IMG/VR virus record: IMGVR_UViG_3300020204_000007
Span: 32,001 to 96,000 of that record
DNA from: a virus
Strand: one strand, 5' to 3'
Length of the DNA stretch: 64,000 nucleotides
In this document: one piece after another, positions 3,175 through 8,341 of the stretch
How positions within the stretch are numbered: the stretch's first letter is position 1
Layout: each line of letters starts with the position of its first letter
Program-made: the position numbers and the translations under genes
Notes under the pieces: generated by a model
Seen by the model: only the letters and a program-made list of their open reading frames with translations
Database searches by the model: none
What the model was told of the DNA's origin: nothing

Positions 3175-4098
3175 ATGGCAATTGATTTAAATAGAATGAC
3201 ATTTGGCGCTGAACTAGAACTTGGCGATGTTGATACAAAAATTATTTTACCGCCAGGAAATAAATGGTGCGATAAAGATGGATCTATTTGTAATTCCAAC
3301 GGAACCGCAAATGATCCAAAAAAAATCTTCAATCGATATGGTGGCGAAATTCAAATGAAACCAGAAAATTCGCCAGAAGAACTTTTGCATGCAACCAAAG
3401 ATATCTATTCTTTGTTTTCTAAAAAACATTTCAATTATACCACTAATTTACATGTTCATATTAGGGTTCCTGGTCTAAAAGAAGACTTAGATGCATTGAA
3501 GAAAATTACAGAATATTTACGCAAATATGATGAAGAAATTTATGAACTTATAGACCCAAATCCATTTCCAGAACGACAATTAAAATTTTCTAATCCAGAC
3601 TTTTACAACGGAGCAGTCTCTAGGTGGCGAAGAAGAAATAAATCGCATCGCTACCGCGTTTCAGAAAAAGTATATAAATTAATGATGAATGCTAAAACTC
3701 CTCAAGAATTTTACGAAGCCCATGCGCCTAAAAATAGGTTTGGACAGCCCATGTGGCATGTAGTTGTCAGGGCCGGTGTAAATTTAAAGCAGGTGTTTGA
3801 AGACACCGAGACTATTGAATTTAGACATTTCACTATGTCTCCAGATATGAATAAAATGCTTTCGGCCTATAAATGGCCAAAATTATTAATGGAAGCTATT
3901 TTTATTACTGGAGATGCGCCAAAACAAATACTAAAGAAAAATCCAGAATTAGAATTTCAAAAATTTCATGATTATGATCACAATTTAGATAAAATTTTCA
4001 AAAAAACAAATGTTTATCACAATAAACGATCTGTTGTTAGAGAAAATTATAAAACTTTGATTGAAGAAGGACTTATTGATGAGCAATCACTCTACTAA
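3175..4098 (+). CDS. Putative amidoligase (COOH-NH2 ligase, Amidoligase_2-like)
   Basis: TFGAELE, GGEIQM, LHVHI and TIEFRH motifs of glutamine-synthetase-fold amidoligases; GGAG SD. Confidence 0.8.
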   Translation: MAIDLNRMTFGAELELGDVDTKIILPPGNKWCDKDGSICNSNGTANDPKKIFNRYGGEIQMKPENSPEELLHATKDIYSLFSKKHFNYTTNLHVHIRVPGLKEDLDALKKITEYLRKYDEEIYELIDPNPFPERQLKFSNPDFYNGAVSRWRRRNKSHRYRVSEKVYKLMMNAKTPQEFYEAHAPKNRFGQPMWHVVVRAGVNLKQVFEDTETIEFRHFTMSPDMNKMLSAYKWPKLLMEAIFITGDAPKQILKKNPELEFQKFHDYDHNLDKIFKKTNVYHNKRSVVRENYKTLIEEGLIDEQSLY

Positions 4099-4567
4099 TT
4101 CTTGGTCTAGAGCAAAAAAAATATTGTTTATTTGCACAGGCAATAAATTTAGAAGCCCATCTGCAGAACATATTTTAAAAACATTATCGCCGAATCTAGA
4201 GGTAAAATCAGCTGGAACTTCAGCTAATTCTGCCAATAATCATCTGATCGCTAAAAAAATGCGTCGTTGTTTGATTGAAATAGGCTATGAAGAGCCATCA
4301 ATTAAATCGCAACACGTTTCTAAAGAATTACTAGAATGGGCCGATCTTGTGTTTTATATGGCGCCAACTCACATAAAATATTTAACAGAAAACTACCCAG
4401 AATTTGCCATTAAATATCATGGTTTGTATACATTTGATAAAAGCAATGGCTTTGAATTAAATAGAATCGAAGATCCTGCATTTATCAAAAATCATTCAGA
4501 TGTTTTGCAAGTTACTAAATTAATTGAATTATGTGTAAAACGTGCAAAAGAAGTTTTAAACTTCTGA
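4079..4567 (+). CDS. Low-molecular-weight protein-tyrosine-phosphatase/arsenate-reductase-fold protein
   Basis: ILFICTGNKFRSPSAE (CX5R loop), SAGT, WADLV and IEDP motifs; start moved to ATG 4079. Confidence 0.85.
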   Translation: MSNHSTNSWSRAKKILFICTGNKFRSPSAEHILKTLSPNLEVKSAGTSANSANNHLIAKKMRRCLIEIGYEEPSIKSQHVSKELLEWADLVFYMAPTHIKYLTENYPEFAIKYHGLYTFDKSNGFELNRIEDPAFIKNHSDVLQVTKLIELCVKRAKEVLNF

Positions 4568-4678
4568 CCCAGAAATTTTATTCTTTTGTCGGGCGCCAGT
4601 TGGAATACTCATTCCAGGTGGCGTTGGAATTTTTGGCATTTCTATTTTTAATTTAGGTATTTTTGATTGTTTAGACAT
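4556..4678 (-). CDS. Possible 40-aa basic, proline-rich peptide
   Basis: MSKQSKIPKLKIEMPKIPTPPG...; fills the gap between convergent genes; weak support. Confidence 0.3.
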   Translation of the reverse strand: MSKQSKIPKLKIEMPKIPTPPGMSIPTGARQKNKISGSEV

Positions 4679-4742
4679 TGAAGATACTGTGCCATCTTTT
4701 AATTTATAAAGATGATCTTGAGTCTTTTCCGTTGCAGAAGAC

Positions 4743-5279
4743 TTACTTAATTTCTTGCATAGTTCTAAGATTTCTAACAGCTTCTTCAAGTTCACCTTCT
4801 GTCGCAATCCATGGCGGGACACAAACCATTTTATGTTGTATTTTACCATAATTGATTTGTTTCAAAAACGGTTTTAGCAATTCTTGTTCGTCTTGATGGC
4901 GGTTTTCTTTTAAATATGAAATATTAATAATATTTTTATCGAGCATTCTTGACAAACAGGCCATACAGGGCTGTACACTGACTAGAAATTCGTATTGATG
5001 TCGATGAGGAAATTCATTCATTTTATCAATTAAATCAATTTCTGCATGTCGAATCAAAAACTTTTTACTAGGATTTTTATCAATTGATATTTCGTTTTTT
5101 GCAAAATTATTTGATGCAAAAAAATTAATCAATTTATTTACACCAAAGGCAATGACTGAATTAGTTGAATTGTCTATTGCTATTGCAACAACTTGTACAA
5201 GAGGATCGTCACTGCGTTTTTTAAGGGCTTCAAAGAGGACTTCGGTATTAACTACTGGATAGCTTCCGTAGACAAACAT
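4743..5279 (-). CDS. Cytidine/dCMP deaminase-family protein
   Basis: HAE...PCMAC zinc motif. Confidence 0.8.
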   Translation of the reverse strand: MFVYGSYPVVNTEVLFEALKKRSDDPLVQVVAIAIDNSTNSVIAFGVNKLINFFASNNFAKNEISIDKNPSKKFLIRHAEIDLIDKMNEFPHRHQYEFLVSVQPCMACLSRMLDKNIINISYLKENRHQDEQELLKPFLKQINYGKIQHKMVCVPPWIATEGELEEAVRNLRTMQEIK

Positions 5280-6260: not shown

Positions 6261-6266
6261 ACGCTC

Positions 6267-6593
6267 TTATTCTAAATCTGCACCCATGTCTACAACACCT
6301 TCTTTTTGCAATAACGAAAGTGCTAGCACTCTTTTAGAATCTGCGAAGTTTTTTGTTTCATTAAATGCACTACGGAATGTCTGCAAAACTTCTTGTGCTG
6401 CTTTGTATTCTGAATTAGATTCCATTTCTTTCTTAGCCTTCAACACATGAGCGTTTTGCTCTGCAACAATTTGCTTCAATTTGTCAGGAGAATATGTTTT
6501 AACCATTTGCAATTCATCGTAAGAATAGTTTTTTACAAATGTTTTTTCAATATCAGAAAGATGGCTGTATTTATTTGACTTGCTTTTCTTCAT
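6267..6593 (-). CDS. Hypothetical helical protein
   Basis: GGAGG SD upstream of ATG 6593; packed within the operon. Confidence 0.7.
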   Translation of the reverse strand: MKKSKSNKYSHLSDIEKTFVKNYSYDELQMVKTYSPDKLKQIVAEQNAHVLKAKKEMESNSEYKAAQEVLQTFRSAFNETKNFADSKRVLALSLLQKEGVVDMGADLE

Positions 6594-6594
6594 A

Positions 6595-7449
6595 TTAAGC
6601 CTCCACAAACAATAATTGTTTATTTTTTATATACGCGGTTTTTTCTTTTTGAGTAAAATGATGTTGCAAAAATTTATGATCAAATTGACAACTGTCAATT
6701 AAATTCCAAAAATCTTTGTCTGAAAAAATTTCTGGTTTTTTTAGGGCTAAAAATTCATTGATATCATGGCCAATAACATAAGAACCCTTGTGCAAAATTT
6801 TTGGAACTTTACACAGGCAACTTTCTACTTGACCAATTGGCGCAGACCATTTTTTAGATAACTCCCATCCAAACTCCTCCCATTTTGTTAATATTTTTCG
6901 GTCATACTTTTGGTCAATTCCATATAAATATCTGAGTCCAAAAATTGGACCGGTGTTTTTATTTGGGTCTGAATTTTCAATTCCTAATCCATGAATACGC
7001 AAATTATTGTATCCGAGTGTTTGATCTAAAACTTCGCAGATTTTATAACAAGCCCAATCACCAAAGTACGGAATCGTTTTAAAAAGCTCTCTTCCGCTAT
7101 CAAAATTATGTTCTTTTGTAACTAGCAGCGGTTTAATTTCCAACCATCTCTGATAGGCTTTTTGAAAGTTTTCTAAACGTCGTACTTGCGGTGTTCGCCC
7201 TCGTTCCATACCAAATTTAGTAATTTTATTAAAACAGACAGTTTCTGTACTATCAGAAACCATCCGCATGAAATGAATCATGCTTTCTATAGAATAGTAG
7301 TAGACATACATGAAAACGGCAGTCTCTGGATCAAACTTTTCATGTTGAATAATTTTTTGTAAAAACGGATAAACAGGGTCAACATCTTTGGTTTGAATCA
7401 ATGCAAGACTGGCTTTTTCAAAATCACCATAATTAAATAGCTGATGCAT
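6595..7449 (-). CDS. Amino acid:DNA transferase (aGPT-Pplase2/ADDT family, HhH-glycosylase-like fold)
   Basis: DVDPVY, GMERG, FGDWACYKICE, VESCLCK and YVIGHDI match recalled aGPT-Pplase2 motifs (DxDP, GxERR, FGxWxxFK, ETxLCK, YxxGxDI). Confidence 0.75.
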   Translation of the reverse strand: MHQLFNYGDFEKASLALIQTKDVDPVYPFLQKIIQHEKFDPETAVFMYVYYYSIESMIHFMRMVSDSTETVCFNKITKFGMERGRTPQVRRLENFQKAYQRWLEIKPLLVTKEHNFDSGRELFKTIPYFGDWACYKICEVLDQTLGYNNLRIHGLGIENSDPNKNTGPIFGLRYLYGIDQKYDRKILTKWEEFGWELSKKWSAPIGQVESCLCKVPKILHKGSYVIGHDINEFLALKKPEIFSDKDFWNLIDSCQFDHKFLQHHFTQKEKTAYIKNKQLLFVEA

Positions 7450-8341
7450 AGACTTGCGCCTGAATTGCGTCTGCAATTTCTTTTATATAGGAAGGTGCGT
7501 GTCGTAATCCGTTTGCAGATTTAGGCGTGATGTACATTTGATTACTTTCTTGTATAAAGGCATATGGAAATTCGGAAACATATGCGGGACGCCAACCAAC
7601 TGTAGGAGATCCCTCTGGTTGAATATCTACTTGTCCGTCTGTAACTTTTTTAATATGAGAAATAATATTTTCCACTTTACTGCCGATTTCTAAATCTTTT
7701 TGATTTTTTTGATAAATAAAATGTGTTCCAAGGTAATAATCATCAGTCATTGGTCGAGGATACAAATATGCATTAATAAAACGACCTTCTTTAGCATTCA
7801 GACACATGCGCGGGTATTTATCAAACACTTCTCCAGAAACTTTGCATGGAACAGACCATCCCCATCTATAATCAGTGGGACGATGTTTATGGAATCCATG
7901 AGCATGGACAATTAAAGCATCTGATTGGCAATAACCAGGTCCAAATAATGAAAAGAAAAAATTTCTAGAAAAATTAACAAATTTTTGTACATTTACATGC
8001 ATAGAATGTTTATTAAGAATTTTAATATTGCCAATACATTCTTCAACTTTTAGATCTTTTGAATTATTTCCATGCGGGATACTTTTTTGTGTAAATCCAT
8101 ATGGTACAGATTCTGCAAATAATTGTATTGGCATAGTTTCATCGGGGGCAAATTTTTTTATCCAAAGATTATAATTTAAATTATCAAATGAATCTCCAGA
8201 TGGATAAATGCAACCAGTGCTTGCCTTCCAAGCTGATGGATGATCTTCGTCATGCCATGTAAAATCAATTTTTCTTTCTGTTAGTTCCCATGCAAGCAGG
8301 CTGCCAATTAATCCAAAGCCTTTAATATGTACTTTAAGCAT
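7433..8341 (-). CDS. FAD-dependent oxidoreductase (DAO/glycine-oxidase-like)
   Basis: N-terminal GFGLIG Rossmann motif, SAWKASTG, VGWRP and NGLRHAP. Confidence 0.8.
   Translation of the reverse strand: MLKVHIKGFGLIGSLLAWELTERKIDFTWHDEDHPSAWKASTGCIYPSGDSFDNLNYNLWIKKFAPDETMPIQLFAESVPYGFTQKSIPHGNNSKDLKVEECIGNIKILNKHSMHVNVQKFVNFSRNFFFSLFGPGYCQSDALIVHAHGFHKHRPTDYRWGWSVPCKVSGEVFDKYPRMCLNAKEGRFINAYLYPRPMTDDYYLGTHFIYQKNQKDLEIGSKVENIISHIKKVTDGQVDIQPEGSPTVGWRPAYVSEFPYAFIQESNQMYITPKSANGLRHAPSYIKEIADAIQAQVYASAI

Follow-up and report, generated by a model that had tools for sequence, protein, structure and literature searches.

An amidoligase-phosphatase pair in a phage thymidine-hypermodification cluster and the amide-linked base that it may write

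A 64,000-nt stretch of the IMG/VR virus record IMGVR_UViG_3300020204_000007 (hereafter the window; positions 35848-99847 of a 106,653-bp phage contig, CheckV completeness about 65%) carries a compact cluster of eight genes in which an amidoligase and a low-molecular-weight (LMW) phosphatase stand beside enzymes of thymidine hypermodification. The comparison with related phage loci makes it clear that amidoligase and phosphatase form a genuine tailoring module of this kind of pathway, one that is widespread and uncharacterised, and the module probably writes a DNA base that is not yet identified. Read from the genes alone, the cluster would be a post-replicative set of the PaMx11 kind, in which 5-aminomethyl-dU, made by a kinase, an amino acid:DNA transferase (AADT) and a FAD oxidase, is N-acylated by the amidoligase; we give this reading about an even chance.

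Hypermodified thymidines shield phage DNA against nucleases, those of restriction systems included, and the enzymes that make them are finding use as tools for DNA labelling. The number of known end products is, to our knowledge, small. The module described here is widespread and has no product assigned to it, and the comparative results narrow the question of its chemistry.

The cluster and its enzymes

The features that carry the argument are the following.

3175-4098, plus strand: ATP-dependent carboxylate-amine ligase of the glutamine synthetase (GS)/glutamate-cysteine ligase (GCL) type, Amidoligase_2-like, 307 aa, assigned by fold, invariant residues and the Pfam matches of homologues
4061-4567 (likely start 4079), plus strand: LMW phosphatase (LMWPc), 168 aa, overlapping the amidoligase stop, assigned by Pfam LMWPc
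5252-5890, minus strand: P-loop kinase, candidate 5-hydroxymethyl-dU (5-hmdU) DNA kinase (5-HMUDK), 212 aa, with Walker A GAGATGKT and a weak phrog_800 match
6595-7449, minus strand: AADT (aGPT-Pplase2), 284 aa, assigned by phrog_6364, a leave-own-out hidden Markov model (HMM) and catalytic residues
7433-8341, minus strand: FAD-dependent amine oxidase of the DAAO/glycine oxidase/MnmC (GR2) fold, 302 aa, assigned by the GFGLIG motif and fold
47776-48699, minus strand: HMUDK_hel protein (helical partner of 5-hmdU DNA kinases, PaMx11 gp50 family), Pfam HMUDK_hel at 1.6e-24

The two plus-strand genes overlap by 20-38 nt and converge on a minus-strand run (4743-5279, 5252-5890, 5883-6257, 6267-6593, 6595-7449 and 7433-8341) whose members overlap or are separated by gaps of <10 nt. 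Gene calls made independently on identical metagenome contigs gave the same eight genes, with minus-strand proteins of 302, 284, 108, 124, 212 and 178 aa. A preliminary description of this DNA, made from its letters, had drawn the same tightly packed run meeting a plus-strand pair, and its layout holds, as do the motifs it listed (GFGLIG, Walker A GAGATGKT, HAE/PCxxC, and CTGNKFRS plus DP); all of its family assignments were upheld by profile, fold and residue tests. It had also seen no GNAT or radical SAM gene, and we likewise found no GNAT (Acetyltransf_1), radical-SAM or class-II glutamine amidotransferase (GATase) gene in the 106,653-bp contig, PLP enzymes being outside that search. The synteny of the whole cluster is kept in two more IMG/VR contigs, G001 (locus L006) and G002 (locus L007), where the cluster proteins are 58-91% identical and the flanking RecA 95-96% identical in amino acids to those of the window. 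The arrangement is thus real and conserved and not a product of chance open reading frames (ORFs).

The 307-aa amidoligase itself stays below the cut-off of Pfam Amidoligase_2 (PF12224; 17.3 bits vs 22), and the profile was matched by 29 of its 47 close homologues (E up to 0.01; best 2.9e-9). Its AlphaFold2 (AF2) model has a pLDDT of 96, and all 50 structural matches listed for it belong to the GS/GCL superfamily, with YbdK first at Z 10 and plant and E. coli GCL, GS and PafA/Dop among the others. Residues E13, E15, D35, D47, E58, H93, H95, R199, E215 and R217 are invariant among the homologues; as aligned, the invariant Glu, His and Arg fit an enzyme that works with a metal, ATP and an acyl phosphate. 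YbdK, gamma-glutamylcysteine ligase, glutamine synthetase and PafA have this fold too, together with the conserved acidic, His and Arg residues that bind these ligands, whereas the window protein is much smaller (about 300 aa) and phage-specific. The 168-aa protein encoded next to it matched Pfam LMWPc (PF01451) at 9e-17 (62 bits vs a cut-off of 23.2). Its phosphatase loop, C25-x5-R31-S32, and general acid, D138-P139, are intact and are conserved in 74-77 of the 77 phosphatases found next to amidoligases; judged by these residues, it is an intact, standard LMW phosphatase. A predicted complex of the amidoligase and the phosphatase scored 0.00, which counts neither for nor against binding.

The preliminary description had made its reading depend on the 6595-7449 protein matching the transferase family ADDT. 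It does so by several routes, although Pfam ADDT (PF18724) itself remained sub-threshold (18.3 vs 26.2 bits). The protein matched phrog_6364, the family that includes PaMx11 gp46, at 2.7e-9; an HMM built on the AADTs of other lineages retrieved it at 2e-17; and homologues at 38-43% identity carry PF18724. Profile A5, which includes the window protein, matched PDB entries 25qc (9e-43) and 8z2m, the gp46 structure (1e-34). The residues invariant in A5 (D24, Y48, Y52, E209 and C213) align with D24, Y47/Y51, E243 and C247 of gp46, which were shown to be catalytic by structure and mutation (PMC8989533, PMC11472151). By this alignment the 284-aa protein is an AADT with the catalytic Glu-x3-Cys, and it is predicted to transfer an amino acid to DNA carrying phosphorylated 5-hmdU (5-PmdU).

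The 212-aa kinase is weakly but consistently tied to the 5-HMUDK family. It matched phrog_800, which contains PaMx11 gp49 (5e-30) and the Wooper DNA kinase, at 5.5e-4, a weak score over the same profile region as gp49, and a kinase HMM built without its own lineage gave it 6e-6 vs 2e-3 for other P-loop proteins. No Pfam family (PF18748 included) and no meaningful PDB sequence was matched, and tblastn returned nothing. Its gene lies in one operon with the AADT gene, two small genes away. The HMUDK_hel gene lies 40 kb from the cluster; its Pfam match is above the cut-off, and it shares phrog_2396 with gp50.

The 302-aa protein contains the dinucleotide-binding motif GFGLIG (GxGxxG), and its AF2 model (pLDDT 90.6) has the fold of the amine oxidases. 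Foldseek matched DAAO at TM 0.70-0.73 (E 1e-11), and VIA gave Z 21.7 for DAAO, 20.1 for the FAD domain of MnmC and 19.7 for glycine oxidase, over the full length (278-285 residues aligned). Its nearest homologues in cultured phages are the gp5 proteins of Gordonia and Rhodococcus phages, which are encoded in cassettes of the order ParB - Tet-JBP - aGPT-Pplase2 - 5-hmU DNA kinase - gp5.

Partners of the amidoligase across phage genomes

IMG/VR was scanned with aligned amidoligase homologues, which gave 348 relatives; 80 loci were fetched for comparison, and family profiles and clusters were built from their six-frame ORFs. For the counts we used the 44 well-flanked loci, in which the amidoligase homologue has 3.5 kb or more of flank on each side. 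An AADT was present in all 44, a P-loop kinase in 42 (the AADT-kinase pairing of the window thus being found in 42/44) and an LMW phosphatase in 41. Co-occurrence with AADT genes was a point on which the preliminary description had staked its claim for the amidoligase, and it holds. The commonest gene order was TET_JBP - class-II GATase - (GT1) - amidoligase - LMWPc - AADT - kinase. In all, at least 348 IMG/VR stretches contain the module, as do about 259 protein clusters formed at 50% identity.

Gene fusions tie the same functions together. The amidoligase is fused to LMWPc in L058, P0135, P0148, P0151, P0158 and P0231, and to both LMWPc and the TET-associated glycosyltransferase (TAGT) in P0136; P0139 is a TAGT-amidoligase fusion and P0210 a GATase-amidoligase fusion. 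The amidoligase is fused to a kinase in P0057 and probably in P0133, where the AAA_33 match is weak and sub-threshold. A GT1 glycosyltransferase gene lies between GATase and amidoligase in 20 loci, and some versions of the pathway probably also add a sugar, as the TAGT fusions and GT1 genes indicate.

A separate sample of 80 gp46-like AADT loci was taken from a scan with a narrower AADT alignment (A7), the broader one (A6) being too divergent. LMWPc was found in 12 of these 80 loci, all of which also contained the amidoligase; 67 had neither, and none had the phosphatase alone. The phosphatase therefore follows the ligase and not the AADT.

In PaMx11 the order is gp46 AADT - gp47 oxidase - gp48 acetyltransferase - gp49 kinase - gp50 - gp51 - gp52, and phage Simon (PQ683277) has AADT - FAD oxidase - amidoligase - LMWPc - kinase - HMUDK_hel - Nmad5 - ThyA-like - HD. 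The Simon orthologues of gp46, gp47, gp49, gp50, gp51 and gp52 are 34-51% identical and keep their order, and the amidoligase and LMWPc occupy the position of gp48. Similarly, the gp46-like loci with an oxidase had a gp48-like acetyltransferase in 16 cases, an amidoligase in 11, neither in 17 and both in none, and no gp48-like protein was detected in 82 amidoligase loci. It was reported that gp49, gp46 and gp47 make 5-PmdU, N-alpha-GlyT and 5-NmdU in turn (PMC8989533; structures in PMC11472151) and that gp48 acetylates only the amine unmasked by gp47 (PMC8989533). Both gp46 and gp47 flip a base. Since the pair sits in the slot of an enzyme that acts on this unmasked amine, the simplest reading is that the ligase provides an alternative, ATP-driven acylation of 5-aminomethyl-dU.

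The other partners of the amidoligase fall into two types that do not mix. Among the 44 well-flanked loci, 31 had only the GATase, 8 only the FAD oxidase, 5 neither and none both; counted per amidoligase cluster at 70% identity (n=28), the numbers were 16, 7, 5 and 0. A maximum-likelihood tree of the amidoligases required about four changes per partner label, and it contained well-supported sister pairs of opposite type, such as L017 (GATase) and the window lineage (oxidase), with 99/93 support.

Proposed pathway and alternative explanations

We propose the following sequence of reactions for the window phage. In the phage DNA, 5-hmdU would be phosphorylated by the P-loop kinase, probably aided by HMUDK_hel, and the AADT would then swap the phosphate for an amino acid, of which glycine is the most likely. 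Cleavage of the N-C-alpha bond by the FAD amine oxidase would leave 5-aminomethyl-dU. Finally, the amidoligase would activate a free carboxylic acid as the acyl phosphate and join the acyl group to the DNA-borne amine, giving N-acyl-5-aminomethyl-dU, a previously undescribed base. The amidoligase would be translationally coupled to the LMW phosphatase, the two together taking the place of the GNAT of PaMx11. The phosphatase may remove a phosphate after ligation of a phosphorylated acyl donor, clear unreacted 5-PmdU, or hydrolyse misplaced acyl phosphates or phosphoramidates. If the scheme is true, an ATP-driven means of attaching acids of choice to an amine on duplex DNA would be useful in itself.

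The preliminary description had suggested acylation of the free 5-aminomethyl amine. The replacement of gp48 in clusters of the PaMx11 type is what this idea predicts; such acylation is not the general chemistry of the family, since most relatives have a GATase and lack the FAD oxidase. Glutamate, put forward there as the acyl donor, is an analogy only.

Several observations weigh against the acylation scheme. A source of its starting base is missing, as neither ThyA nor ThyX nor a true TET/JBP was found in the 106-kb contig. The need for a phosphatase is accounted for neither by acylation nor by amidation. The oxidase belongs to a lineage of its own: searches of Pfam and PDB sequences with the single protein and with its profile gave no meaningful match, an HMM of the gp47-type oxidases did not retrieve it, and hhalign placed it with the gp47 type at 87% probability over the N-terminal 83 columns only. 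The gp47 structure was also not among the 50 structural matches listed for it. A role as N-alpha-GlyT oxidase is suggested by its modelled fold and gene context. In addition, the relatives that have a class-II GATase and no FAD oxidase form the majority (31/44), which suggests amidation of a carboxylate with ammonia, that is, a bond of opposite polarity; and, as the tree is read, the partner switches between fairly close amidoligases at least 3-4 times. The amidoligase family may work in two polarities, or else the acylation reading of the oxidase-type clusters may be wrong.

The origin of the hydroxymethylated base was followed in the related loci. TET and ThyA-type enzymes were found in 29 and 10 loci, respectively, and never together, and HMUDK_hel was always accompanied by a ThyA-type hydroxymethylase (11/11). 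Because HMUDK_hel is present here and elsewhere occurs only with ThyA, a pre-replicative hydroxymethylase is expected for the window phage. The search for a dUMP hydroxymethylase that the preliminary description had called for was run, and it gave no ThyA-type source in the contig and an Asp-type homologue only in the relative G001. That contig reaches about 14.6 kb past the left end of the contig of the window and there encodes a 244-aa ThyA homologue (L009:1291-2025 = G001:C1:5131-5865), a lone plus-strand gene among minus-strand tail-like genes. Its nearest solved relative is the T4 dCMP hydroxymethylase (2e-18), and it has Asp at the position that sets cytosine/uracil specificity (D179 in T4, N177 in E. 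coli TS), whereas Asn is found there in 11 of 11 ThyA homologues of other amidoligase loci and in PaMx11 gp51. A further ThyA-like gene of the set (L090:12125-14194) has an insertion of about 330 aa right after the catalytic Pro-Cys, ending in ...VHNC, which resembles an intein at the active-site cysteine.

Next to the kinase in the cluster lies a gene that could link such an enzyme to thymidine.

4743-5279, minus strand: zinc deaminase of the cytidine/dCMP deaminase family, 178 aa, with HAE and PCxxC motifs

It matched Pfam dCMP_cyt_deam_1 with 26.9 bits (cut-off 25), and its nearest solved relative is the human dCMP deaminase 2W4L (2e-4). Among 82 loci it is restricted to the window, L006 and L007. 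The Asp-type ThyA homologue and this lineage-specific deaminase raise the possibility of a route from dCMP through hm-dCMP to hm-dUMP. In such a cytosine-fed pathway, a ThyA-type dCMP hydroxymethylase would make hm-dCMP, and either the deaminase would convert it to hm-dUMP or the kinase and AADT would act on 5-hmC in DNA. The likeness of the G001 protein to the T4 enzyme, the confinement of the deaminase to the window lineage and the constant company of HMUDK_hel and ThyA-type enzymes speak for it. On the other hand, the Asp-type gene lies outside this contig, about a third of the genome being unseen, and in G001 it stands alone on the opposite strand among tail genes; moreover, PaMx11-type phages also have an ordinary dCMP deaminase that simply supplies dUMP. 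We consider this route possible, if on the unlikely side.

One other candidate for the hydroxylase, a 2OG-Fe(II) oxygenase (2OG-FeII_Oxy_3; 47205-47858, minus strand) encoded between HMUDK_hel and a 639-aa gene, was rejected. It matched Tet_JBP weakly (19.7 vs 34.9 bits) and is a member of phrog_61, a generic phage family; its other homologues occur in arrays of oxygenase paralogues without modification genes. The gene is a hypervariable accessory: L101 has a remnant of 93 aa, the L103/L104 versions are no more than 49-52% identical although their flanks are 84-86% identical, and G002 lacks the gene altogether while its modification cluster is complete.

The combined proposal is that the pair is a widespread module writing a new amide-linked base, that this base is N-acyl-5-aminomethyl-dU in the oxidase-type clusters, with an acyl group that could by analogy with GS, GCL and PafA be gamma-glutamyl, and that 5-hmdU may arise here by way of a dCMP hydroxymethylase and deamination of hm-dCMP. 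We put it forward tentatively, at somewhat less than even chances.

The direction of the amide bond could also be the reverse. The amidoligase would then activate a carboxylate already on the DNA, namely the carboxyl of the amino acid that the AADT attaches, and amidate it with ammonia or another amine, which would neutralise the charge and give, for example, a glycinamide-thymine; in the window phage, free ammonia or another amine would have to stand in for the GATase. The class-II GATase lies directly upstream of the amidoligase in 31 of the 44 well-flanked loci, and the fusion P0210 has the classic layout of a glutamine-dependent amidotransferase. As the GATase adjoins the ligase and is sometimes fused to it in this way, ligases of the GATase type more probably amidate a carboxylate with ammonia, and CmoY offers a case of amide ligation on a DNA-borne carboxyl. 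The window phage and its relatives, however, have no GATase and possess a FAD amine oxidase that would remove the glycyl carboxylate. GATase and oxidase were found together in 0/44 loci (0/28 clusters at 70% identity), and in the PaMx11-type clusters the pair replaces an enzyme that acts after the oxidase. For the window phage we therefore hold amidation to be unlikely. That the GATase supplies ammonia to the AADT, as a second route to 5-NmdU with MnmEG-like use of NH4+ or glycine, was also considered; it explained the exclusivity of GATase and oxidase and was weakened by the GATase-amidoligase fusion and adjacency.

It is very unlikely that the amidoligase and phosphatase act off the DNA, making or trimming a small-molecule nucleophile (for instance from a phosphorylated precursor) that the AADT later installs: a phosphatase strictly tied to the ligase would suit a phosphorylated building block, but the amidoligase is fused to the DNA kinase (P0057) and to the TET-associated glycosyltransferase (P0136, P0139), it occupies the slot of a DNA-acting acetyltransferase, and further biosynthetic genes are absent nearby.

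Related systems and neighbouring genes

The preliminary description had put the cluster forward as a candidate new pathway, but the cluster type is already on record: amidoligase-bearing thymidine-hypermodification clusters were present in the work of Lee et al. (2021, PMC8989533), who reported that metavirome 5-HMUDK/aGPT-Pplase2 clusters include genes whose function is unknown and whose Pfam matches are to amidoligases and glutamine amidotransferases, and who also described TET_JBP cluster variants without a hydroxymethylase. A 2026 paper on T-dioxygenases placed GATases, kinases and AADTs around ParB-dependent enzymes (PMC13229309). The phosphatase partner, the replacement of the acetyltransferase and the mutual exclusion of oxidase and GATase are not mentioned in PMC8989533, PMC13229309 or the 2018 paper.

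The closest described pathway is that of PaMx11, which leads to 5-AcNmdU. Both have a P-loop kinase, an AADT whose catalytic Glu/Cys and pocket residues agree, a FAD oxidase of one fold and HMUDK_hel, and phage Simon bridges PaMx11 and the window cluster. The window differs in having an amidoligase and LMW phosphatase instead of the acetyltransferase, an oxidase of a separate sequence lineage and an HMUDK_hel gene 40 kb from the cluster; no Asn-type hydroxymethylase like PaMx11 gp51 was seen in the 106-kb contig. The metavirome clusters of the order TET_JBP - GATase - amidoligase - AADT - kinase share their families of amidoligase, LMW phosphatase, AADT and kinase with the window, but their 5-hmU comes from a TET/JBP dioxygenase and they have a GATase where the window has the FAD oxidase. 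The five-gene actinophage system (ParB, Tet-like JBP, aGPT-Pplase2, 5-hmU DNA kinase and oxidoreductase; Gordonia phage Wooper, Rhodococcus phage Tonitrus) contains the closest cultured-phage homologues of the window AADT and oxidase, at 25-31% identity; it has neither amidoligase nor phosphatase, and its 5-hmU is derived from the dioxygenase.

That an amide can be formed on a DNA base at the cost of ATP is known from CmoY (PMC12783734) of Synechococcus phage S-B43, which acts on 5-carboxymethyl-dC. An ATP-using, post-replicative amide bond on a DNA base would be common to both systems. Unlike the window ligase, CmoY is asparagine-synthetase-like and AMP-forming, its carboxyl is on the DNA, its base is cytosine, and it has no phosphatase partner.

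Relatives of the amidoligase were also seen in other surroundings. In the actinophage-like L016 (JGI Ga0007882_10000117, 9643-20750), three Amidoligase_2 paralogues lie beside genes for aspartate decarboxylase, LuxE/LuxC, an aminotransferase and QueD/QueE-like proteins, and in Vibrio phage 2.275.O (L004) a homologue of the window amidoligase adjoins QueF and other 7-deazaguanine genes. Distant members of the amidoligase family may thus decorate 7-deazaguanines in DNA. In L014, a 179-kb relative with amidoligase-LMWPc-AADT, matches to intein-splicing domains were found in DNA polymerase A and a helicase (940-3480 and 5898-7853).

Two small genes between the kinase and the AADT complete the minus-strand run.

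5883-6257, minus strand: 124-aa protein whose C-terminus is Cys-rich and resembles a zinc ribbon; conserved only in L006 and L007 (62-65% identity)
6267-6593, minus strand: 108-aa protein, conserved only in L006 and L007 (89-91% identity)

Neither protein gave a lead in Pfam, PHROG or Atlas. A megablast of the region found no cultured phage with DNA-level similarity, and a promoter and terminator scan gave a signal no better than that of shuffled sequences. A 97-aa ORF (4556-4849, minus strand) fills the space where the phosphatase and deaminase genes converge and overlaps the 3' end of the latter; it was called as a gene on the identical contigs and is 58% identical in the relatives, and we regard it as putatively coding.

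Around the cluster, the contig has genes for the replication, recombination and structure of a phage (RecA, SbcC/D, DnaB, ribonucleotide reductase, portal and a ClpP-like protease). A stand-alone ORF at 12536-13357 (minus strand) is coupled to sbcC; it is 84-86% identical in G001 and G002 and has no Pfam match. Additionally, the window encodes three auxiliary proteins, a Cpn60-type chaperonin (18973-20580, plus strand), a DenV-like pyrimidine-dimer glycosylase (31821-32348, plus strand) and an enzyme of the GMP-reductase/IMPDH family (35763-36788, minus strand).

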